From the NCBI GenBank assembly GCA_964496765.1, contig CAZCAP010000017.1, positions 1 through 9,550 of the forward strand: DNA of 9,550 bases, read 5' to 3'. Origin of the DNA: an uncultured archaeon. Its GTDB lineage: Archaea; Iainarchaeota; Iainarchaeia; Iainarchaeales; CSSED10-239. A program made the translations under genes and the position numbers. Shown piece after piece: positions 1 through 9,550 of the stretch. The first letter of the stretch is position 1. Each line of letters starts with the position of its first letter. The notes beneath the pieces are model-generated. The model was not told the DNA's origin. It searched no databases and saw only the letters and a list, made by a program, of their open reading frames with translations.

Positions 1-70
1 TATAAACAGCAACAAGTATTCCCACAACAAAACAAAGAAGAACAACAACTGCTAACGTATTAAGATTCAT
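1..70 (-). CDS. 5' end of a CDS that runs off the window start; the N-terminus is hydrophobic (signal peptide or TM helix)
   Basis: Reverse complement of 1..70 starts with ATG (70..68) and reads MNLNTLAVVVLLCFVVGILVAVY with no stop before the window edge. It begins 18 nt after the stop of the upstream ORF (89..91). Only 23 codons are visible, so no family call is possible. Confidence 0.3.
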   Translation of the reverse strand, partial: MNLNTLAVVVLLCFVVGILVAVY

Positions 71-88
71 TTAATTTCTTTCCTTTTC

Positions 89-382
89 TTATTTTCTAAG
101 TTCTATCTCAAAGATATCAATTATTCTATCTGTATCTAGATCCTTTAATGAAATCCTATTATTTGCTTTTCTTACAAACATTAAATTAAAGTTAGAATAA
201 TTTGCAACTAATCTTCTTAGCCTATCATATTGCTTGAGAGTAACTTCTTTTTTATGCCTATGGGTTAGCTCAGTAAACACTTCATGGAATCTTTCACTTT
301 TTTCAAACAATTCTTTGTTTCTTACCTTAATTTTTTCAGTTCTGTTTCTGAAGATATCACTTAATCTCATAAGTTCTTTCAC
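89..382 (-). CDS. Small hypothetical protein (93-97 aa, charged, probably helical), immediately downstream of alaS
   Basis: ORF on the same strand as alaS. The GTG at 382 lies 4 nt after the alaS stop. A more likely start is the ATG at 370, which is preceded by AGGTGA (SD-like) 8 nt upstream and gives MRLSDIFRNR.... I recognise no family motif. Confidence 0.55.
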   Translation of the reverse strand: MKELMRLSDIFRNRTEKIKVRNKELFEKSERFHEVFTELTHRHKKEVTLKQYDRLRRLVANYSNFNLMFVRKANNRISLKDLDTDRIIDIFEIELRK

Positions 383-386
383 CTAC

Positions 387-3080
387 TTAATTAAACTTTC
401 CTTGGAAGAGAGGATCTCCTCCGCCTTTTATTTGTTTACCAAGTTTCTTTTCAAGTTCCTTCTTTATTCCATCTATTGATTCCTTTGATGAAGGGCCTTT
501 CCAAATGAAAACATTTCCATTATTATTGTATATTGCAATAATCTTATCCTTTGATTTTTCAGTTGCCTGAACCTGTTTGAATACTTTTAGTATTTCTGCG
601 ATATCTAGATTAAATTTAGCAATAACTGTTTTATCATGGGTATTAACAATATTATCTAACTCATATTCAGCTATTCTATGCTTTAGAGAATCAATTTCTT
701 TTTTTTGTTCTTTCCATTCTTTAAAAAAGTTCCCTAACGTTTTTGAAAGTTCGCTTTTATTAACACATAAAACATCAGATGAATTTTCTAAATGCTTTTC
801 TTGTTCTCTAATATATTCAAGTGCTGCTTTCTGGGTTGTGTAAAATATTCTTTCAATTCCATCCTGAACACTTGTTCTTTTAATTATTTTAAAAATACCA
901 ATGTCCTTTATTTCATTTAAATGAAGCCCAGCACATGCCTGAACATCTATGTTTGGTATTTCAATTATTCTTAAAAGGTTCCCGGGAATTGCTCCACCTT
1001 GGTAAAGCCTGAAACCATATCTTTTTTCTGCTTCATCCTTTGCTAATTCAAAGATGTTTACTTTGCTTCCATCTAAAATCCATTCATTAACCTGATCTTC
1101 AATTAAATCAAGCTCTGCTTTTGTGATTGGTTTGTAGTGTGTGATGTCCAAATGAGATTCTAGAACATCCTTGCTTGCTCCAGCCTGCCATATATGCTGA
1201 CCAAGTATCTTCTTAGCAGCAGCATTTAGAAGATGTGCTCCTGTGTGCATGCATCTTAATTGCTTCTGACGTAGATCATCAACTAAACAAATTATTGATT
1301 GTCCAAGATTTATTATTTTCTTTGGATTATCTAGGAAGTGAAGAATCTTTCCTTCATAATTATAAACCTCTGTTACTTTGTGTGCACCATTTATTGTTCC
1401 ACAATCATAGGTTTGTCCTCCACCTTCTGGATAAAACACTGTTTTATCCAAGATAATAAATTTTTCTGATGCATAGAGAACCCTTGATGTGCATTCAGTT
1501 TTATTTTCATAATATAATTTTTTTGTGTTTGGAAGAGCTTTAATTATTTCTTTGTTTTCTTTTTCAAGAAGCTTCTGGATAATACTAACATCCTTTATTG
1601 CTTTTCCAGTTAAATTACTTTCTGCAATTGCCCCAAAATAATCTGCAGGAAGTTCTATCTTCTTATTCAACTTTTGTGCAGCTTCTTCAATCTGTTCTTT
1701 AGTTATTCCATCGCTCTTGTACATTGTTACAAAGTCCTTTGTATCAAGCTTTCTTCCTGATGAAAGAATACTTGCAAGCTTGCTTACTGCTTTATCTTTA
1801 TTTTGTAAATATTTCTTTTTTTCTTCGTCAAGCACATCACAGGCAGTATTAAATCCTCTTGATAGGCTAGGATCAAAATCCTTCAACGAATGAACATGTT
1901 CTTCAAATATCTTATTAAAATCTAGTTTGAAATTATGTGTTTGATCAATATCAAACAATCTTCTTGCTAGGATTCTTAGATTATATCCTCCACCAGAATT
2001 ACTTGGAAGAAGGCCATCAGTCCCTGTGTAAAGAAGAGTTTTTGTATGATCACAAACTGCATAGAGAGCATGAACTGGATCTAATTTCTTGAAGAGTTCA
2101 TCTTTGGAGTGTCCAAGTTTCTTTGCAATAGTTTCCTGAACTTTTTTAAGATCACTAACCTCATCTGCATTTAATTCTCCAGATAATCTATAAAAATCAG
2201 TTAATAGTTTATCATCAAACTTTACTCCAGTATGCTTTTTTAAATATTTTAAAACATCATCAAATGTAATATCATAGCTTGTTGGAGTTCCATTTGTGTA
2301 CCAAGCAAGTCTTTCAAACCCTGCCCCCATATCAATAACAGGTTTCTTTAATTGCTCGTACTTTCCTTTACCCATATCCTGATATTGCATGAAAACACAA
2401 TTACCTAGCTCAACACCATTAGCAAAATATTCCATACATGGTCCAAAGTTTCCTCCACCTTCCCAAACATCCTCAAAAAAAACAAGATCATCTTCCTTAA
2501 CTCCAATAACCTTAGTTAAATATTCATGATCTAGAGAAATAGCTTCTTCTTTCCAGTAGGGTTTCTTTGGATCACTATTGAATGCATGTTGACCAAACAT
2601 AACAAAGGTTGTATAGTGTGTTCCTGTAACCCCTACATTTGAGAGATCTCCAAACCTAATGGAGGTTTGTGGAACAATAAGTGGATCTGCTGGTGGTTTA
2701 ACCTCACCATTAACAACATATGGTTGGAAATCTATAATTGATGCATTTGTAAAATATAAATCATTTCTCCATCTAGGAATAACAGGATATCTTTTAATTG
2801 ATTCATGTCCATTCTTTTTAAAGAATTTTTCAATTTCTTTCCAGGTTTCTTGATATGTATATCCTTTTGTTTTATGTCCAATGAAATCACGAGATTGACA
2901 ACTAGATTCAGCACAATATTCTCTATTTGTGTTTGTCCAAAAAGCTCTTTTACATTTCTTACAAATCTTTCTTTCATAACCTAAATTAGTAAGCGCTTTA
3001 ATCTTATAATGATCCTGCCAGTTCTTTTCAAACATTGGTCTAACTTGTTTTTTAAGTTCAGTTTCAGCCATAAACATCAA
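387..3080 (-). CDS. alaS: Alanine--tRNA ligase, archaeal type
   Basis: 897-aa ORF. The N-terminus carries the archaeal-type Cys-rich element (GYERKICKKCKRAFWT...YCAESSCQ). The editing domain has HxxxH (MHTGAHLL) and CxxxH (CAGLHL) zinc motifs. The C-terminus has a DHHA1-like GGG motif (IKGGGDPLFQG). The start is ambiguous: TTG 3080, ATG 3077 or ATG 3071. TATA-like boxes lie very close upstream, so the leader may be short or absent. Confidence 0.95.
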   Translation of the reverse strand: MMFMAETELKKQVRPMFEKNWQDHYKIKALTNLGYERKICKKCKRAFWTNTNREYCAESSCQSRDFIGHKTKGYTYQETWKEIEKFFKKNGHESIKRYPVIPRWRNDLYFTNASIIDFQPYVVNGEVKPPADPLIVPQTSIRFGDLSNVGVTGTHYTTFVMFGQHAFNSDPKKPYWKEEAISLDHEYLTKVIGVKEDDLVFFEDVWEGGGNFGPCMEYFANGVELGNCVFMQYQDMGKGKYEQLKKPVIDMGAGFERLAWYTNGTPTSYDITFDDVLKYLKKHTGVKFDDKLLTDFYRLSGELNADEVSDLKKVQETIAKKLGHSKDELFKKLDPVHALYAVCDHTKTLLYTGTDGLLPSNSGGGYNLRILARRLFDIDQTHNFKLDFNKIFEEHVHSLKDFDPSLSRGFNTACDVLDEEKKKYLQNKDKAVSKLASILSSGRKLDTKDFVTMYKSDGITKEQIEEAAQKLNKKIELPADYFGAIAESNLTGKAIKDVSIIQKLLEKENKEIIKALPNTKKLYYENKTECTSRVLYASEKFIILDKTVFYPEGGGQTYDCGTINGAHKVTEVYNYEGKILHFLDNPKKIINLGQSIICLVDDLRQKQLRCMHTGAHLLNAAAKKILGQHIWQAGASKDVLESHLDITHYKPITKAELDLIEDQVNEWILDGSKVNIFELAKDEAEKRYGFRLYQGGAIPGNLLRIIEIPNIDVQACAGLHLNEIKDIGIFKIIKRTSVQDGIERIFYTTQKAALEYIREQEKHLENSSDVLCVNKSELSKTLGNFFKEWKEQKKEIDSLKHRIAEYELDNIVNTHDKTVIAKFNLDIAEILKVFKQVQATEKSKDKIIAIYNNNGNVFIWKGPSSKESIDGIKKELEKKLGKQIKGGGDPLFQGKFN

Positions 3081-3270
3081 TACCTATAAATATACCTAAC
3101 ATATCTATAAATTATACTTAATATATAAGATAAATAAGTATTTAAAGATATATTTTAGGGTTAATTATATCTATTGGCTTTTTCTAAGCTTTCTGGCCTT
3201 AAATGAAGATATATTTATAAAACGTTCCAAATAATTAATATCTATTAAAGCATAAAATAGTGGAAATAAT

Positions 3271-3342
3271 ATGATGAAAATAAACAAATCTAATTTAGGT
3301 TCTTTTTCCATTATTGATAAGTATGCCTATTGGTATTATTAA
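3271..3342 (+). CDS. Candidate 23-aa mini-ORF MMKINKSNLGSFSIIDKYAYWYY (speculative small or precursor peptide)
   Basis: ATG at 3271, TAA at 3340..3342. A weak SD-like GTGGA (3260..3264) lies 6 nt upstream and a TATA-like box lies about 50 nt upstream. It is on the same strand as the radical-SAM gene and 112 nt upstream of it, and is followed directly by a hairpin. It is too short for any statistical support from the sequence alone. Confidence 0.25.
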   Translation: MMKINKSNLGSFSIIDKYAYWYY

Positions 3343-3378
3343 CTAAAAACTAAACTACTTTAGTTATCAAGCCAATAG
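3327..3378 (+). promoter_or_regulatory. Nested stem-loop overlapping the 3' end of the mini-ORF; possible attenuator or partial terminator
   Basis: The outer stem pairs CTATTGG (3327..3333) with CCAATAG (3372..3378). The inner stem pairs AACTAAA (3348..3354) with TTTAGTT (3359..3365) around the loop CTAC. AACTAAA is also directly duplicated at 3341..3347. A T-run (CTTTTTAATTT, about 3390..3400) follows. The stems are short and AT-rich, so predicted stability is modest. Confidence 0.3.
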
Positions 3379-3454
3379 ATTTTAATAGTTCTTTTTAATT
3401 TAAGCACATTTTGATTTCTAAAGTAGTATTTTAAAAAACAGGAGGAATCAAAAT

Positions 3455-4102
3455 ATGAACAAAAGTATATTACGAGGATTTCCAGAGGATATGGTGAAAG
3501 ACAATAACCCTATCTTCTTTGGAATACATTTAAAGCCAATATGTAACTTTAAATGCAAAAAGTGTTTCATAGGAGAAATGAACAACCTAAGAATACAACA
3601 AGATCTTAATTTAAAAGAAATCAAACAAATAATACTATCCGCAAAGAATAATGGGTTTAAAGTATTAGGAATTACAGGAGCTGGAGAACCAACACTTGAT
3701 AAAAGAATAAAAGCAATTGTTTCTCTTGCACATAAGAATGGATTAATTACTCACATTCCCACAAATTCATCTTTATTAAGTGAAGAACTTCTACAGTTCT
3801 TTAAAGCCAAAGATGTAACTTTAATTTTAAGTCTTGATACAATAGAGAAAGATAAGTTTATTGAGCTAAGTGGAACTAACGAAAGTGTATTCAAAACAGT
3901 TATAAAAAACATTACTCTTGCTCAAAAAGTATTCAAAGACACTATGATTGTAAAAAATAATAAAAACACACATAGAATTGCAATACACATGACTGTTAGT
4001 GATGAAAATCAAAATGAAATAAATGCAATCAAACAAATAGCAACTAAAGACACTTTATTTAGTATTTCATCCTATCGCTGGCAAGGAATTAGCTACTTCT
4101 GA
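3455..4102 (+). CDS. Radical SAM enzyme, N-terminal and core part, truncated by an apparent frameshift
   Basis: CX3CX2C cluster motif CNFKCKKC (C30/C34/C37, 3542..3565). GGE-type SAM motif GITGAGEPTL. TNG-like PTNSSLL. ILSLDT strand. Strong SD before ATG 3455. The last 12 or so residues (SISSYRWQGISYF) look non-homologous, whereas the +1 frame continues with a plausible radical-SAM strand. Confidence 0.85.
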   Translation: MNKSILRGFPEDMVKDNNPIFFGIHLKPICNFKCKKCFIGEMNNLRIQQDLNLKEIKQIILSAKNNGFKVLGITGAGEPTLDKRIKAIVSLAHKNGLITHIPTNSSLLSEELLQFFKAKDVTLILSLDTIEKDKFIELSGTNESVFKTVIKNITLAQKVFKDTMIVKNNKNTHRIAIHMTVSDENQNEINAIKQIATKDTLFSISSYRWQGISYF

Positions 4103-4130
4103 TGAAATTACAGAAAAACACATAGTTGAA

Positions 4131-5189
4131 GTGTTTGATCCACTAACCAAAAGAAACATTTGTGGTTTTTTTAGATTCGGAATAGATATTAATTTTGATG
4201 GACAATTATTACTAGACGCCCATGCCATAAGAACATCAAAAGTATTACCTAACATTAGAAGTTTCAATTTAAATATTAAAAAAGCTTTTGATTTTGCAAA
4301 ACCAATCAAAATTAATTTCATTAAAAAACACATGGATGGTTTTTGTCCAGTTAGGTCAAATAATATAGATAACTGGATTAAAGATAAGGCTATGAAAATG
4401 GATATTAAAAAAAATATTCAAAAAGGTAAACCCCTACTTAAATTTTCATATGTTAATAAGGGTGCAAAAAAATTCTTGAAAGTATTAAATAGTAAAGAAT
4501 ATTACACCACAAAAAATGAATTGAAGATAATCACTAAAGAGGAAAAAGAATTACAATCGTTTCTCAAAAAAAATATTGTTGTTCTGGGAGTTGGAAATGG
4601 AGATAAGATCAAAAAATTAATTAATGCACCTAGCAAAAATGTGACTTTAGTAGACATTAGTGAAGATCTTATGAAAATTGCAAAAAGTAAAATTCAAAAA
4701 TCAGATTTAACAACTATAATTGATTCTTTTGAAAATATTGATGTTTCCAAATTTCAAAATACAACATTTATCATACTCGGAGGAACTTTATTTAATAATG
4801 ATAATTGGATAGATTTTATTAATAGATTAAAACAAAAATCTATTAATTCAAATTTAATTATAGGTGTAGAATTATTAAATGGAATTTCTATAGAGGACAT
4901 AATAAGACAGTACAACAATGAAACAGGATTTGAATTCATATTTCAACCATTAAAAATAATCAGGATCAAAAGGAACTCTGGAAAGATAAAAGTTAACTTC
5001 AATATTTTAAAAGATAGAATTGAAGAATGGTTTATTCCAAACAAACCAATGTTCAATAAAAAGAAAATATTACTATCAATATCTATTAAAATAAGCGAAG
5101 AAAGATTTATTAAAAAAATTAATAAAAAAAATATTGAATTTAATTTTAAGGAAGGTGATAATCATATAATTGGAATTAAATTAAACTAA
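4131..5189 (+). CDS. Continuation of the radical-SAM protein (C-terminal barrel strand plus a Cys-poor SPASM/twitch-like segment) fused to an EgtD-type (Methyltransf_33) SAM-dependent N-alpha-methyltransferase domain
   Basis: This frame is open from 4047 (KTLYLVFHPIAGKELATSDEI...), and there is no SD before the nominal GTG at 4131. From about residue 100 it resembles the EgtD family as I recall it. KFSYVNKGAKKFLKVLNSKEYYTTKNELKII resembles the WFYD..GS.LF..I....EYY.TR.E..IL region. VVLGVGNGDK (4587..4601) resembles LVELGSGTSEK. ILGGTLFNN resembles FLGSTIGNL. LIIGVELL and RQYNNETG resemble LLLGTDL and RAYDDAAG. Confidence 0.8.
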   Translation: MFDPLTKRNICGFFRFGIDINFDGQLLLDAHAIRTSKVLPNIRSFNLNIKKAFDFAKPIKINFIKKHMDGFCPVRSNNIDNWIKDKAMKMDIKKNIQKGKPLLKFSYVNKGAKKFLKVLNSKEYYTTKNELKIITKEEKELQSFLKKNIVVLGVGNGDKIKKLINAPSKNVTLVDISEDLMKIAKSKIQKSDLTTIIDSFENIDVSKFQNTTFIILGGTLFNNDNWIDFINRLKQKSINSNLIIGVELLNGISIEDIIRQYNNETGFEFIFQPLKIIRIKRNSGKIKVNFNILKDRIEEWFIPNKPMFNKKKILLSISIKISEERFIKKINKKNIEFNFKEGDNHIIGIKLN

Positions 5190-5205
5190 AATTGAGGAAA
5201 GATGT

Positions 5206-6543
5206 TTATCTTACAACATCTTTCACTTTATTTATATCCACAAGAGCTTCTTCTCCACTCTTCATGTTCTTGATCTTTATCTTGTTCTGCTTAACTTCAT
5301 CTTCACCTAGAAGACCAACAAATGGAATTCCTGATTTATTTGCAAAATCCATGTTCTTTCCAATTGCTCTTCCTAAGAGATCCATCATTGTCTTTATTCC
5401 TTGATTTCTTAGTATCTGTGTTATTTCAATTGCTTGCTTCTCTGTCTTGATTGGAATAATATAAAGATCTGCTGTTGTTTCCTTCTCCATTCCATCTCTA
5501 GCTTTAATTATCTCCATAATTGGCTCAAGACCAAATGCAACCCCAGTTGCTGGATAATTTCTATTCTCATCCTTAAGATATTTACCTATCATCTTATCCC
5601 ATCTTCCACCACCAGCAATTGAAACTGAAAGAATGGACTCATCTTTTAAGAAAACCTCAAAGATTGGACCTGTATAATACCCTAATCCTCTAGCAAGGGA
5701 TGGAAGGAAAACATAATCTGTGTTAAATTCAGAAAGATAATTAAAAAGTTCTTGTAATTCTTTTACTCCATCAGTTTCTCCAATTATTTTTTGTATATTG
5801 CTTAGCTTTCCTTGGTTATCTCCTTCAACAAGAAGGATATCTAGAATCTTAGTTATCTTATCTTGAGATATTTCTTTTTCAAGAAGTTCTTTAGTTACTC
5901 CTTCTCTTCCAACCTTCTTTAACTTATCAATTGTAATAATTGTTGTTGTTTGATAATCTTCTGGAATTTCTACAAAATTTAAAATATCTGCAAGAAGCTT
6001 TCTTGAAGACATCTCTATGTTTACATCAAGCTTAAGTTCTTTGAATACATCTGAGATAAGAGCAAGTATTTCTGCATCAGTTATCATTCCACTGGCTCCA
6101 ACTGTGTCAACATCACACTGGTAGAACTCCCTATATCTCCCTGCTTTGATTGGACCATCACGAAAAACAGGGCCTATCTGATATCTTTTGAATGGCAATC
6201 TTGTTTGAGGGTTCATTCCTATGTATCTAGCTAGTGCAAATGTAAACTCATATCTTAAACCTAAATCTCTATCCCCTTGATCTTTAAATCTATAAATCTC
6301 AGAGATAGCATCAGACGCTTCTCCAGCTCCAAACTTAGCTTCTAAAATATCTAATCTTTCAACTGTTGGAGTTTCAAGAGGAGAAAATGCATATATTTCA
6401 AAAATATTTTTTATTTTTGATATAACAGAATCTCTAAGTATTTTTTCAGCAGGAGAGAAATCTCTAAATCCTTTTGCTAAATCTAATTCAAAATTATCAT
6501 TCATTTCACATACACCTTTTTTATTATTATATTTAATACACAA
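5206..6543 (-). CDS. hisS: Histidine--tRNA ligase (class II, eukaryote/archaeal-type motifs)
   Basis: HisA-like motif LRYEFTFALARY. Motif 2 is FRDGPIKAGRYREFYQCDVDTVG. HisB motif is AGGGRWD. The C-terminal anticodon-binding domain is present. The likely true start is ATG 6504 (MNDNFELDLAKGFRDF), preceded by AGGTG. The ORF-track start at 6543 adds 13 atypical residues. Motif 3 reads GVAFGLEP rather than the expected G.G.ER (see findings). Confidence 0.9.
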   Translation of the reverse strand: MCIKYNNKKGVCEMNDNFELDLAKGFRDFSPAEKILRDSVISKIKNIFEIYAFSPLETPTVERLDILEAKFGAGEASDAISEIYRFKDQGDRDLGLRYEFTFALARYIGMNPQTRLPFKRYQIGPVFRDGPIKAGRYREFYQCDVDTVGASGMITDAEILALISDVFKELKLDVNIEMSSRKLLADILNFVEIPEDYQTTTIITIDKLKKVGREGVTKELLEKEISQDKITKILDILLVEGDNQGKLSNIQKIIGETDGVKELQELFNYLSEFNTDYVFLPSLARGLGYYTGPIFEVFLKDESILSVSIAGGGRWDKMIGKYLKDENRNYPATGVAFGLEPIMEIIKARDGMEKETTADLYIIPIKTEKQAIEITQILRNQGIKTMMDLLGRAIGKNMDFANKSGIPFVGLLGEDEVKQNKIKIKNMKSGEEALVDINKVKDVVR

Positions 6544-6548
6544 ACATT

Positions 6549-7334
6549 TTAAAGCTTATATAATTCTTTTCTTCTATCTCCCATTAGGTTATTATACTTA
6601 TTATAATTTTTATTTCTTGCTTTTTTAACATCTATGGTAACCATTTGGATATCTTCTCGATTATTACCTTTAGCAAGCACTTTCATTCTTGGATCTACAA
6701 TTTCTGATTCTCCACAAAAATCAATATTTCTTTCTTTACCAACTTTATTAACAGTTATAGTAAATATCCCATTTTCTAAAGATCTACTTCTCATACAGGT
6801 CATAACTTTTTTTGGTTTTGTTTTCAAACAACAGGGGCAACAAATAATATCCACTCCTTTCAAAGCTAAAGTTCTAACTATTTCTGGGAACATATAATCA
6901 AAACAAATTATTAATCCAATATTTCCAATAGCTGTCTTAAAAACTTTATAATTGGTTTCTCCTTTATTAAATGTGTTTTTTTCTTTATAAAATAAATGTG
7001 TTTTTTGGTATTTTCCAATATATCCTTTTGGACCAACTAATACACAGCTATTATATAATTTATTTTTTTTAATTTCGGGCAACCCACAAACAATGTACAC
7101 ATTATTATTTTTACAAATGTCTTTTATTTTTTGTACACTTTTACCAGATGGTATTTCTTCCGAATATTTTTTCAGTTCATTTTTATTTTTAAATAGATAT
7201 CCAGTTGTATATAATTCAGGAAGAACTAATAAATTTATTTTTTTATTTTTTAAATTATCATTAATTCTTTCCAAATTATAATTAACATCTCCAAATTTCG
7301 ATTTAAATTGAAAGAAACCAATATTTATCTTCAT
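6549..7334 (-). CDS. Carbon-nitrogen hydrolase (nitrilase superfamily amidase), substrate unknown
   Basis: 261 aa with an intact Glu-Lys-Cys triad in canonical contexts: LVLPELYTTGY (E40), GKYQKTHLF (K111), GLIICFDYMFPE (C144). Its ATG overlaps the HAL stop (ATGA, 7331..7334). Its stop lies 5 nt before the hisS ORF. Confidence 0.85.
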   Translation of the reverse strand: MKINIGFFQFKSKFGDVNYNLERINDNLKNKKINLLVLPELYTTGYLFKNKNELKKYSEEIPSGKSVQKIKDICKNNNVYIVCGLPEIKKNKLYNSCVLVGPKGYIGKYQKTHLFYKEKNTFNKGETNYKVFKTAIGNIGLIICFDYMFPEIVRTLALKGVDIICCPCCLKTKPKKVMTCMRSRSLENGIFTITVNKVGKERNIDFCGESEIVDPRMKVLAKGNNREDIQMVTIDVKKARNKNYNKYNNLMGDRRKELYKL

Positions 7335-8854
7335 TTAAAAATCACTTTTTCTTCTAATTTATTTAATAATTCCTCATTTCTTATAATATCTATAACTTTG
7401 TCTATATCTTTATAAAAAATCCTGTCCTTATCTATAAATTTTGATATTTTTCTTATTTCTTCATAAATTATTTCTGATCCTACACCAGCTTTTAATGGCC
7501 TCTTAAAATCCAAAGCTTGACAACCACATAATAATTCAATGGCTATAATTGCTTGTGTATTTTTAATAATTTCTCTAAGCTTTCTAGAAGCATTTGTTGC
7601 CATTGACACGTGGTCTTCCTGATCTCCAGATACAGAAATACTATCAATGGTTGCAGGTGTTGCAAGTATTTTGTTTTCATTAATTAATCCTGCTTGTGTA
7701 TATTGTGCAATCATTAATCCAGAATCTAATCCTTCTGATTTTATTAAGAAAGCTGGTAATGATCCATTAAGATTTGGATTAAGTAGTCTATTGGTTCTTC
7801 TTTCACTTAAATTACCAAGATCCGTAATAGCTATAGATAATAAATCCATTACTAAACCAACTGGTTCACCGTGAAAATTACCACCTGCCAAATATGTTTC
7901 AGATTCTGTAATAAACACAGGATTATCCACAACAGAATTTATTTCTATTAGGATTTGTTTTTTAGTATACTCTAAAGCATCCTTAAAAGCTCCTGTAACC
8001 TGAGGAGTACATCTTAATGAATAGCAAGATTGTGTTTCTGTTTTCTTTTGTGCAAGTATTTCTGAATCTTTTATTAAATTTAGTAAATTTTCTGCAACAT
8101 CTCTCTGTCCTTTATATGGTCTTAAATCCATTAATCTTTTATCAAAGGCCATAGTAACTGTATTTAACACATCAATTGTTAATGCACCAGAGGCTTGTGA
8201 TAATTTAATTAATCTTTCTGTATCATAAATATTTAAACAAGCATAGGCAGACATAAACTGTGTTCCATTAAATAATGCTAACCCTTCTCTAGGCATTAAT
8301 CTTATGGGTTCTATATTTTCTTTTTTAAATACTTCTTTTGTTTCTAATCTTTCACCTTTATATATAACTTCACCTTCTCCAATTATAGGTAACATTGCTT
8401 GACTTAGAGGCGCTAGATCTCCTGATGTCCCCACAGATCCTTTCTCGTAAATTACAGGAATAATGTTTTTATTTAGTAATTCAACAATTCTATTGATTAT
8501 TATAAGCCTAACACCAGAATAACCTTTTACTAATGTATTTAATCTTAAAAGAACTGCTGCTCTTGCAATTTCTAATGGTGCGGGATTACCAGTTCCTGCT
8601 GCGTGTGCTCTTAGCATTCTTTCAGATAATTCTCCACCAAGATCATTTGACAATATACAATTTCCAAAACCTCCAATTCCAGTGTTTACACCATACATTA
8701 TTTCTCCTTTATCTAAGAGGCCTAATAACATATTCCAATTATCTTCCACTTTTTTTTTATTTACGTTAGGTACTTTTATCATAGCTCCAAATCTACCTAC
8801 ATTAACAACATCTTCTATACTTAGGTTGTTTCCATCAACAATAACTTCTCTCAT
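7331..8854 (-). CDS. hutH: Histidine ammonia-lyase (MIO-dependent aromatic amino-acid lyase family)
   Basis: 507 aa. MIO-forming segment GSVGTSGDLAPLSQ (Thr-Ser-Gly at 143-145). HAL-type residues are retained: Y54 (YGVNTG), H83 (RAHAAG), N196 (NGTQF), Q/Y/R in QSCYSLRCTPQV, F in NFHGEPV, and E in DQEDHVSMA. An SD-like GGAG lies upstream of ATG 8854. Confidence 0.9.
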   Translation of the reverse strand: MREVIVDGNNLSIEDVVNVGRFGAMIKVPNVNKKKVEDNWNMLLGLLDKGEIMYGVNTGIGGFGNCILSNDLGGELSERMLRAHAAGTGNPAPLEIARAAVLLRLNTLVKGYSGVRLIIINRIVELLNKNIIPVIYEKGSVGTSGDLAPLSQAMLPIIGEGEVIYKGERLETKEVFKKENIEPIRLMPREGLALFNGTQFMSAYACLNIYDTERLIKLSQASGALTIDVLNTVTMAFDKRLMDLRPYKGQRDVAENLLNLIKDSEILAQKKTETQSCYSLRCTPQVTGAFKDALEYTKKQILIEINSVVDNPVFITESETYLAGGNFHGEPVGLVMDLLSIAITDLGNLSERRTNRLLNPNLNGSLPAFLIKSEGLDSGLMIAQYTQAGLINENKILATPATIDSISVSGDQEDHVSMATNASRKLREIIKNTQAIIAIELLCGCQALDFKRPLKAGVGSEIIYEEIRKISKFIDKDRIFYKDIDKVIDIIRNEELLNKLEEKVIFK

Positions 8855-8891
8855 TTTTAATCATCTCCACAAATAATTTTGTAATTTTAAG

Positions 8892-8964
8892 GGTCCGAAC
8901 CGGGATTCGAACCCGGGTCCTAAGATCCACAGTCTTAGATGCTAACCACTACACAACTCGGACC
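8892..8964 (-). tRNA. tRNA-His (anticodon GUG) with genomically encoded G-1 pairing with C73; no encoded CCA
   Basis: Minus-strand sequence: GGTCCGAGTTGTGTAGTGGTTAGCATCTAAGACTGTGGATCTTAGGACCCGGGTTCGAATCCCGGTTCGGACC. Acceptor GTCCGAG/TTCGGAC plus the extra G-1:C73 pair. Anticodon stem TAAGA/TCTTA with loop CTGTGGA (GTG at 34-36). T-arm CCGGG-TTCGAAT-CCCGG. Folded by hand. Confidence 0.9.
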
Positions 8965-8976
8965 ATTAACTACTAT

Positions 8977-9238
8977 TCAGTTTGTTATTACCACCCTATC
9001 ATTATCTACTCTGATAGATACGTTATCAAAGAAACCTAATGACTTTCTAACAGAAGATGGTATTGTTATTCTATTCTTGGAATCAACAGCGATGGGCTAA
9101 TCTATAATTAGTTGATATAATTAATTTAGAATTAATTAAATCGAAATCGTAACTTAAACTAGAGTTATCTTTAAACAAGTTAGTTATTTGTTTTGATAAT
9201 CTAATTCTTCCCTTATCATCAATTTTTGTTTTTTCCAT
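8977..9238 (-). pseudogene. Tandem SpoVT/AbrB-domain (swapped-hairpin) DNA-binding protein, interrupted by an apparent +1 frameshift
   Basis: Part 1 (9083..9238) reads MEKTKIDDKGRIRLSKQITNLF...LIISTNYRLAHRC*, preceded by AGGAGTGA and a TATA-like box. Part 2 is in the +1 frame (8977..9096) and reads PIAVDSKNRITIPSSVRKSLGFFDNVSIRVDNDRVVITN*. Both halves carry the AbrB-type D.KGRI.IP..IR signature. Removing one C from the CCC run (9094..9096) would give one continuous ORF of about 87 aa. Confidence 0.6.
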
Positions 9239-9344
9239 AAATTAAACTCACTCCTTTTTATTGGAATTATAAATAATTTATGAAACAAAGGTTTTAAAAG
9301 AATTGGTGGGCAAAAGCTGTCCAAGAAATATAACATACGTTTGG

Positions 9345-9533
9345 CTAAATCTCATGAAAATTCATTTTATATAATTCAGGAAGATATAAATCAATTGCTT
9401 CTGTAATATTTTGCATTGCTTCTTCTTTTGAGTCACCCTGTGATATACACCCAGGTAATTGAGGAACATAAACAGTATATCCACCTTCTAATTGCTTTTC
9501 AAAAATCACATCTATTTTCATAACATCACACAT
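9345..9533 (-). CDS. HicB-like / UPF0150 family small protein (antitoxin-like fold)
   Basis: KIDVIFEKQLEGGYTVYVPQLPGCISQGDSKEEAMQNITEAIDLYL matches the HicB N-terminal signature (E...GGY.A.VP.LPGC.SQG.T.EEA..NI.EAI.L.L). The likely start is ATG 9521 (MKIDV...). There is no C-terminal DNA-binding extension. Confidence 0.75.
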   Translation of the reverse strand: MCDVMKIDVIFEKQLEGGYTVYVPQLPGCISQGDSKEEAMQNITEAIDLYLPELYKMNFHEI

Positions 9534-9550
9534 ATAATAGGTATAGATAG

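Follow-up and report, generated by a model that had tools for sequence, protein, structure and literature searches.

How can two well-formed enzyme domains belong to one gene whose reading frame is broken in the middle, and what would such an enzyme do? The question is raised by positions 3455 to 5189 (plus strand) of a stretch of 9,550 nucleotides from an uncultured archaeon (contig CAZCAP010000017.1, positions 1 to 9,550; referred to as the window), in which a radical S-adenosylmethionine (SAM) domain and a methyltransferase domain resembling EgtD occupy two overlapping frames. Judged from the sequence, these positions would be one gene of a DPANN-type archaeon for a bifunctional enzyme of about 577 amino acids (aa); taken jointly with a function in amino-acid N-methylation and with the frameshift described below, this reading was given an even chance of being correct. 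The N-terminal two-thirds would be a radical-SAM enzyme, joined by a helix to a C-terminal N-alpha-methyltransferase of the EgtD fold, and the full-length product appears to need a conserved +1 ribosomal frameshift. The parts of the gene are listed here with the evidence for each.

3440 to 3445, plus strand: Shine-Dalgarno-like AGGAGG, 9 nt 5' of ATG 3455 (read from the sequence)
3455, plus strand: ATG, start of the gene and of the frame-1 open reading frame (ORF)
3455 to 4072, plus strand: frame-1 segment, residues 1-206, radical-SAM core through the shift codon TCC (translation, Pfam, ratio of nonsynonymous to synonymous substitution rates, dN/dS)
3542 to 3565, plus strand: CX3CX2C motif (CNFKCKKC), predicted radical-SAM [4Fe-4S] cluster site (sequence, family conservation)
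4067 to 4076, plus strand: candidate +1 shift site TCA TCC T ATC (same site in the related loci L001, L003 and L013; a one-base skip restores the ORF)
4100 to 4105, plus strand: tandem frame-1 stops TGA TGA, which end a 215-aa product if there is no shift
4074 to 5189, plus strand: frame-2 segment, residues 207-577 and stop, with the radical-SAM C-terminal part, linker helix and methyltransferase (translation, protein-level conservation, dN/dS)
4104 to 4355, plus strand: twitch-like radical-SAM C-terminal subdomain, EITEKHIV to GFCPVR (invariant columns, DSSP order in the model)
4161 to 4163, 4215 to 4223 and 4344 to 4355, plus strand: Cys236, Asp254/His256 and Cys297/Arg300 of the twitch-like subdomain (family alignment)
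4434 to 5186, plus strand: N-alpha-methyltransferase domain of the EgtD fold, family Methyltransf_33 (PF10017 E 4e-16, EgtD profile and Foldseek matches)
4581 to 4601, plus strand: predicted SAM motif VLGVGNG of the methyltransferase domain
Tyr332, Tyr349, Asn447, Tyr486 and Ser543 (window numbering), plus strand: clamp residues of the methyltransferase (alignment to EgtD)

The window is AT-rich (22-36% GC), and its AlaRS passes the archaeal equivalog TIGR03683, which marks the organism as an archaeon. All motif strings quoted in a first-pass annotation of this DNA were recovered at the same coordinates and in the same frames: frame 1 (3455-4102) holds CNFKCKKC, GAGEPTL and TNSSLL, and frame 2 (open over 4047-5189) holds NICGFFRFGIDINFDGQLLLDAHAI, NIRSF, DGFCPV, EYYTTKNE, LGVGNG, LGGTLFNN and YNNETG. 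Translation of 4047-5189 also bore out that the junction between the radical-SAM C-terminus and the methyltransferase lies within one unbroken frame. Removal of a single base, T4073 or equivalently T4070, gives one protein of 577 aa. The same annotation had set the upstream frameshift aside as a nuisance; the break is instead conserved and looks programmed.

Four lineages (62-77% identity) have the break at one and the same codon, with the consensus TCN-YCC-T-ATC. The site reads TCA TCC T ATC in the window, TCT CCC T ATC in L001 (74% identity to the window) and TCA CCC T ATC in both L003 and L013 (63%). Skipping of the T gives a single stop-free ORF in all four lineages, and in each of them the zero frame runs into a stop 7-10 codons past the shift site. 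Across JGI, ENA and Logan assemblies of at least 12 samples, 15 contigs carry the site without any difference, and a sequencing error was ruled out as the cause of the break, these 15 contigs being independent.

Both sides of the break are under purifying selection. Between pairs of frameshift-bearing genes, dN/dS was 0.12-0.19 upstream of the site, 0.07-0.21 in the downstream radical-SAM part and 0.16-0.41 in the methyltransferase, at a dS of 0.7-1.6. When the window was compared with each relative, the values were 0.11-0.19 for the frame-1 segment, 0.07-0.17 for the downstream radical-SAM part and 0.14-0.30 for the methyltransferase. Decay into a pseudogene was ruled out on these values. Conservation of the +1-frame protein starts with the first codon after the site (I-A/S-G/E ... 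EITEKHIV; IAG... in the window).

CCC, TCC and ATC are rare in the clade and yet fixed at the site; they account for 5% of Pro, 4% of Ser and 7% of Ile codons, respectively. This suggests that the nucleotides YCC-U-AUC as such are selected. About 90 kb of related sequence contain 815 YCCU sites, and only at these four was a long ORF seen to be succeeded by a long ORF in the +1 frame. Transcriptional slippage was rejected, since the site lacks a homopolymer run and reads TCC in the window, and so was a -2 shift, by which the protein would gain a residue that the homologues do not have.

The full-length protein would then arise by a +1 shift at UCC_U(AUC) in the window and at CCC_U(AUC) in the relatives. 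The peptidyl-tRNA on the rare YCC codon would re-pair one base downstream on CCU, and the next codon to be decoded would be AUC (Ile). In the window the predicted reading is Ser-Ser, T4073 skipped, then Ile. A ribosome that does not shift would terminate 10 codons on and release a fragment of 215 aa.

The best-surviving alternative, which we consider unlikely, is that nothing is recoded. The break would then be a real mutation that leaves the 215-aa N-terminal fragment and a C-terminal protein made from an internal start or by termination and reinitiation, or the gene would be decaying. Gene callers do give two ORFs in every frameshifted lineage, a stimulatory element was not found, the A-site codon is an ordinary sense codon, and in L003 a TTG lies near the zero-frame stop. 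No conserved start codon was found in the downstream frame of the four frameshifted lineages, however, and no Shine-Dalgarno sequence precedes any candidate start there, against AGGAGG at the start of the gene. The candidate starts occupy positions that are not homologous, with GTG for the window and L001, TTG for L003 and ATG for L013, and the first possible start in L013 would delete the invariant Cys236. A two-gene arrangement was discarded because +1-frame conservation begins right after the site, the candidate starts are non-homologous and lack a Shine-Dalgarno sequence, and AGGAGG stands at the true start of the gene. The conservation of the rare-codon heptamer itself also speaks against the absence of recoding, while a dN/dS of 0.07-0.3 at a dS of about 1 excludes decay and the 15 independent contigs exclude a sequencing error.

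Some properties of the site weigh against programmed frameshifting. The zero-frame codon in the A site, UAU, is the major Tyr codon, neither a stop nor a rare codon, and with this common sense codon there is no obvious reason for the ribosome to pause. No convincing conserved RNA structure was found around the site (RNAalifold consensus of -4.2 kcal/mol with little covariation), and no Shine-Dalgarno-like element was found upstream of it; with no stimulator found, the efficiency of the shift could be low or modest. The event may be 'compensatory' rather than regulatory, and the trans-frame peptide, the product and the substrate are all predicted.

An intact homologue of 576 aa (P0001), with 77% identity to the window protein, was found on a 977-kb contig in a word-indexed search of 5.8 billion proteins. 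Its lineage reads TCA AGT ATT at the site and is in frame, and it is nested inside the frameshifted clade in a neighbour-joining tree. The simplest history from this nesting is one ancient gain of the break and one later loss or repair. Directly upstream of in-frame P0001, and divergent from it, lie two tandem ornithine/diaminopimelate/arginine decarboxylase genes (locus L005, 5065-7559). They are noteworthy, with any link being putative, because antizyme, the best-known case of YCC_U frameshifting, senses polyamines.

The combination of the two domains was examined with the conceptually repaired 577-aa protein. Both Pfam models that the first-pass annotation had led us to expect scored above their gathering cut-offs: Radical_SAM (PF04055) with 55.3 bits against 29.5 (residues 28-166, E 1.1e-14) and Methyltransf_33 (PF10017) with 59.4 bits against 23. 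The fusion is thus genuine on its Pfam scores and its intact homologues, and the refuting outcome named beforehand, a C-terminal domain that fails to match Methyltransf_33, did not occur. No NCBIfam model reached its cut-off for the repaired protein.

The word-indexed search returned further intact fusions at 33-43% identity (P0004, P0007 and P0018) and many standalone radical-SAM relatives of 332-360 aa. When 1.84 billion cluster representatives were searched exhaustively with HMMER, only four of fusion length matched in both domains (P0004, P0025, P0018 and P0026), besides dozens of standalone radical-SAM proteins and Methyltransf_33 (MT33) proteins of about 260-300 aa. Intact fusions in DPANN relatives span 566-627 aa. 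In a scan of GTDB species genomes, fusions were found in Micrarchaeota, in Ca. Burarchaeum and in one metagenome-assembled genome (MAG) labelled Methanosarcinales (loci L024-L027 belong to MAGs of Micrarchaeota and Burarchaeum). The same scan gave a split version in Ca. ainarchaeum and, in Nanoarchaeota, a distant relative lacking the methyltransferase. A metagenome scan with the clade alignment gave only two relevant loci, both already known. In a Ca. ainarchaeum MAG of 1.8x coverage (L028, 5881-5984) a separate frame break in the linker between radical-SAM domain and methyltransferase splits an apparent fusion; with a single MAG at this coverage it was set aside as probably an assembly error.

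It had been argued beforehand that orthologues encoded as two separate genes would speak against a meaningful fusion. Many orthologues are indeed separate, but these radical-SAM and MT33 genes adjoin and overlap, always in the order radical-SAM then MT33 (L014/15, L017/18 and L019), and such adjacent overlapping pairs support a functional link and do not refute it. Fusion together with overlapping gene pairs is, at the level of sequence, a classic Rosetta-stone relationship, and the pairing of radical-SAM and EgtD-like domains is by the same measure real, recurrent and rare. The earlier remark that no characterised enzyme of this architecture was known was borne out as well: there is no NCBIfam equivalog and no Pfam model for it, and a literature search gave no relevant report that joins EgtD or Methyltransf_33 with radical SAM, the PF10017 matches being Plasmodium gene identifiers.

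An AlphaFold2 model of P0001, made from a 91-sequence alignment, had a predicted local distance difference test score (pLDDT) of 95 and a predicted template-modelling (TM) score of 0.90. In the radical-SAM domain the three Cys of CX3CX2C are invariant in 56/56 family sequences that cover the site, and the core motifs of the family are CNFxCxKCF, GAGEP, TN(A/G)S and SLD. The predicted partial barrel appears to resemble MoaA, SkfB, SuiB, BlsE and viperin only generically (Foldseek TM 0.45-0.64 to these structures; viperin 0.64, MoaA 0.53). The best NCBIfam matches of the core were MoaA, a W-cofactor maturase and prokaryotic viperin (E of about 1e-14 to 1e-15); they cover only the generic core, residues 24-197, with scores 3-6 fold below the cut-offs (57.3 bits against 284 for MoaA, TIGR02666, and 51.4 against 180 for viperin, NF038283).

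The C-terminal subdomain that follows carries the motifs EITEKHIV ... CGFFRFG ... DGxLLLDAHA ... NIR ... GFCPVR and conserved Arg, Lys and Asn. Neither SPASM nor any other Pfam model matched it in the 19 family members scanned. According to DSSP, the elements in the P0001 model follow each other as Cys236, a beta-hairpin, Asp254-x-His256, a long helix and Cys297; a succession of Cys, beta-hairpin, ligand position, helix and Cys is what we take to be the order of a twitch domain. For the SPASM/twitch-shaped extension proposed earlier, the model thus shows a twitch-like order, and the family has two universal Cys. Cys236, Cys297 and Arg300 are near-universal (66-68 family sequences). Position 254 is Asp in 40/68 and Cys in 25/68 family members, with His or Tyr at position 256 accordingly, and the Cys-Asp-Cys triad of the window (236-254-297) becomes Cys-Cys-Cys in distant relatives. 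This ligand-like exchange of Cys and Asp makes an auxiliary cluster plausible, which by analogy with MoaA might be bound by three ligands from the protein and leave one iron open. The earlier view that such a cluster was unlikely, drawn from the count of two Cys in the window protein, becomes doubtful with the 25 relatives that have Cys at position 254.

For the methyltransferase, the top matches of the P0001 model against the PDB were the EgtD structures 4pip, 4pio and 4pin (TM 0.70-0.75 on the target, about 15% identity), with 4pip and 4pio best at TM 0.74. A profile of 19 family methyltransferase domains aligned to residues 36-302 of EgtD from M. tuberculosis and M. smegmatis (E 2e-17). Neither the egtD equivalog (TIGR03438, 50-53 bits against a cut-off of 290.9) nor the EasF equivalog was reached by the domain, and on its sequence it is best described as a member of the Methyltransf_33 superfamily and not EgtD proper. 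Relatives of EgtD in this superfamily include EasF and the Trp/Tyr betaine synthases.

In EgtD, the carboxylate of histidine is held by Tyr56, Tyr206 and Ser284 and the alpha-amine by Asn166, Tyr39 touches C-alpha, and the imidazole is bound by Glu282 and via a water held by Thr213 (PMC8593015). The pocket comparison suggested in the first-pass annotation showed the clamp kept and the imidazole residues lost. Tyr39, Phe47, Tyr56, Asn166, Tyr206, Ser284 and Lys286 of M. tuberculosis EgtD are retained in the profile alignment, the equivalents of Tyr56, Asn166 and Tyr206 being invariant in the 19 domains. Glu282 is Ser in the family (LLSISIK vs LTEVSCK), Met252 is variable and Thr213 falls within a two-residue deletion. 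Positions 252 and 282 set specificity, since according to the title of PDB entry 4pip the exchanges M252V/E282A are enough to retarget EgtD to tryptophan. We infer that the methyltransferase holds the alpha-amino-acid end of the substrate in the manner of EgtD and that the side chain is not that of histidine. With Glu282 replaced and Thr213 deleted, histidine or hercynine, the substrates put forward earlier, are unlikely.

Taken together, the enzyme would be a SAM-hungry bifunctional one that makes or modifies a non-histidine alpha-amino acid and N-methylates it, expressed in the window clade through the +1 shift, a proposal that could as easily prove wrong as right. The radical-SAM domain would make or modify the alpha-amino acid or an alpha-amino-acid-like moiety, and the methyltransferase would then methylate the alpha-nitrogen of the modified amino acid, probably to a betaine. 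The two steps would form a SAM-intensive module, encoded in relatives either by one fused gene or by two genes that overlap. The order of the reactions, the substrate and the presence of a second Fe-S cluster are all predicted. A narrower version, in which the twitch-like radical-SAM domain and the EgtD-fold methyltransferase make a new DPANN betaine and one clade has long depended on a +1 shift at YCC_UAU_C, is put forward more tentatively, as falling somewhat short of an even chance. If true, a cellular archaeal gene would for the first time be seen to have a conserved programmed +1 frameshift, with a sense codon in the A site and no recognisable stimulator.

The functional part of the proposal has its own weak points. 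Methylation could stop at the mono- or dimethyl stage, neighbourhoods beyond the radical-SAM/MT33 pair are not conserved among lineages, and the fusion is patchily distributed, which indicates that it does not serve a core function. Gene context was rejected as a guide to the substrate, as neighbours differ between lineages and adjacency to the histidyl-tRNA synthetase gene (HisRS) occurs in only one close clade.

Single loci nevertheless offer some observations. In L040 (4090-6029) a distant radical-SAM relative of the Cys type without MT33, P0046, overlaps an upstream PALP gene (pyridoxal-phosphate-dependent beta-replacement) and is followed by an HD-domain gene; the overlap links the radical-SAM family to free amino-acid chemistry, at this one locus. 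In L017 (4722-11853) and L018 a bacterial-looking cluster on one strand consists of metK, which lies directly upstream of the radical-SAM gene in both loci, the radical-SAM gene, MT33, DUF3786, a TIGR00027/LCM-type methyltransferase, PAS and a B12-binding radical SAM gene. The last L017 cluster gene matched BchE and ArsL best, with scores that lie far under the cut-off in either case. For a guess at the product from gene context, this cluster may serve best.

A modification of a macromolecule instead of a free amino acid was judged quite improbable. The enzyme would in that case build and trimethylate a side chain of the amino-carboxypropyl (acp) type on a protein or tRNA, in the manner of diphthine (Dph2 and Dph5) or wybutosine. 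In its favour, the DPANN hosts have reduced genomes with few small-molecule pathways, and translation genes are often nearby (AlaRS, HisRS, ThrRS, Trp/Tyr-RS). In the L003 lineage only, Dph2 (PF01866, L003 3115-4119), encoded on the strand of the frameshifted gene, is found two genes upstream of it, the L017 cluster contains an LCM-type carboxyl methyltransferase, and the clamp would also suit the free amino/carboxylate end of an acp group. The characterised EgtD-family enzymes, however, take free amino acids in a closed pocket (general knowledge; PMC8593015). The neighbours are not conserved, and the family is patchy, unlike a modification of the translation apparatus. A canonical CX3CX2C motif, as is generally known, normally yields a 5'-deoxyadenosyl radical and not an acp radical.

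There is likewise little probability in an anaerobic route resembling that to ergothioneine, in which the methyltransferase makes hercynine and the radical-SAM domain functionalises the imidazole, for example with sulfur from the auxiliary cluster. EgtD is the best-matching family and fold, the Cys-Asp-Cys triad could hold a sacrificial cluster, and histidine genes (tRNA-His, hutH and HisRS) lie next door in the window, with HisRS also adjoining in close relatives. Across the family, however, Ser replaces Glu282 and the segment with Thr213 is missing, and the egtD model gave 50 bits against a cut-off of 291. The adjacency of HisRS is confined to one genus-level clade (the close relatives L001 and L005), while hutH and the neighbouring hydrolase occur in the window lineage only.

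A nucleotide-modifying radical-SAM enzyme of the viperin or MoaA kind, with a methyltransferase of unrelated or regulatory role, has a very small probability: the top NCBIfam core matches, the Foldseek scores to viperin and MoaA and the conserved Arg, Lys and Asn of the C-terminal subdomain fit it, but the scores lie far under the family cut-offs over a generic core, and obligate pairing with an amino-acid-clamp methyltransferase, or PALP in one relative, favours an amino-acid substrate, leaving the viperin-like option of the first-pass annotation unsupported.

Further features noted in the window lie on the minus strand and include a histidine-related run (5206-8963) that converges on the radical-SAM/EgtD-like gene.

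89 to 382, minus strand: 97-aa ORF, no family match
5206 to 6543, minus strand: HisRS
6549 to 7334, minus strand: CN-hydrolase, resembling an archaeal nitrilase, below the cut-off
7331 to 8854, minus strand: hutH, passes TIGR01225
8891 to 8963, minus strand: tRNA-His(GUG)
9083 to 9238, minus strand: 51-aa ORF beside the HicB-like ORF, no family match
9345 to 9533, minus strand: HicB-like antitoxin ORF (Pfam E 2e-10)

The histidine ammonia-lyase encoded by hutH has GTSGD instead of the usual GASGD, with the MIO-forming triad Thr-Ser-Gly and not Ala-Ser-Gly. The HicB-like ORF and the 51-aa ORF may be a small toxin-antitoxin pair. An Rfam scan of the window gave the tRNA only.

Both domains, and +1 frameshifting, are known as kinds. 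New variants are the domain combination, the non-histidine EgtD-like pocket, the Cys-Asp-Cys form of the twitch and the conserved +1 site in a cellular archaeal gene. A recurrent and undescribed radical-SAM/EgtD-like module is thereby defined, and its predicted pocket for a non-histidine alpha-amino acid offers a specific starting point for finding a modified amino acid or betaine that is new, together with new radical chemistry, among the barely studied DPANN archaea. The frameshift deserves no less interest than the fusion. Archaeal recoding has hardly been explored, and the window clade provides a +1 candidate of the YCC_U type of antizyme and Listeria phages across four lineages, with the in-frame 'revertant' lineage of P0001 as a natural control. 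For annotation, automatic pipelines split such a gene into two ORFs or would call it a pseudogene.

Compared with MoaA, SkfB, SuiB, BlsE and viperin, the window enzyme shares CX3CX2C, GGE-type motifs, the partial barrel and a C-terminal extension in twitch order. It differs from them in having no SPASM Pfam match, only two universal Cys with Asp at the third position, no RRE or peptide-binding domain, and equivalog scores far below the cut-offs.

With EgtD the methyltransferase has in common the fold, a PF10017 score above gathering and the residues that hold the amino and carboxylate groups. The domain of the window family is shorter (about 265 aa), has about 15% identity, carries Ser for Glu282, a variable residue for Met252 and a deletion at Thr213, and is always coupled to a radical-SAM partner. 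Fungal Egt1, as is generally known, likewise fuses an EgtD-family methyltransferase to the enzyme of the next or previous chemically hard step. The partner in Egt1 is an iron enzyme of the DinB/FGE type (an EgtB-like sulfoxide synthase), whereas here it is a radical-SAM enzyme. The methyltransferase, whose pocket is not of the histidine type, stands at the C-terminal end here, opposite to the domain order of Egt1.

For the frameshift, a 2021 review lists one demonstrated cellular case in Archaea, the -1 shift of fucA1, and none demonstrated for +1; for archaeal +1 events it has no more than suggestions, concerning Mg-chelatase and a haloarchaeal virus (PMC8211752). As in the fucA1 gene of Saccharolobus solfataricus, an archaeal cellular enzyme gene is here found in two ORFs, with full-length in-frame orthologues in relatives. 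The fucA1 shift is -1 at A-AAA-AAT, with a stem-loop and tandem rare codons and in a single species, in contrast to the clade of several lineages described here.

Closer in kind are the antizyme site, UCC_UGA or rarely CCC_UGA, and the +1 sites CCC_UGA and CCC_UCC of Listeria phages, whose low-GC host uses CCC for 5% of Pro codons; CCCU is also read as Pro in a protist mitochondrion (PMC5009743). The archaeal site differs from those of antizyme and the phages by its sense codon UAU in the A site, the lack of a detected stimulator and the archaeal host. It shares with antizyme and with phages PSA, A118 and A500 a rare YCC in the P site followed by U, on which tRNA re-pairing on CCU is possible, and conservation of the site across lineages, and with the Listeria phages a low-GC host in which CCC is about 5% of Pro codons.

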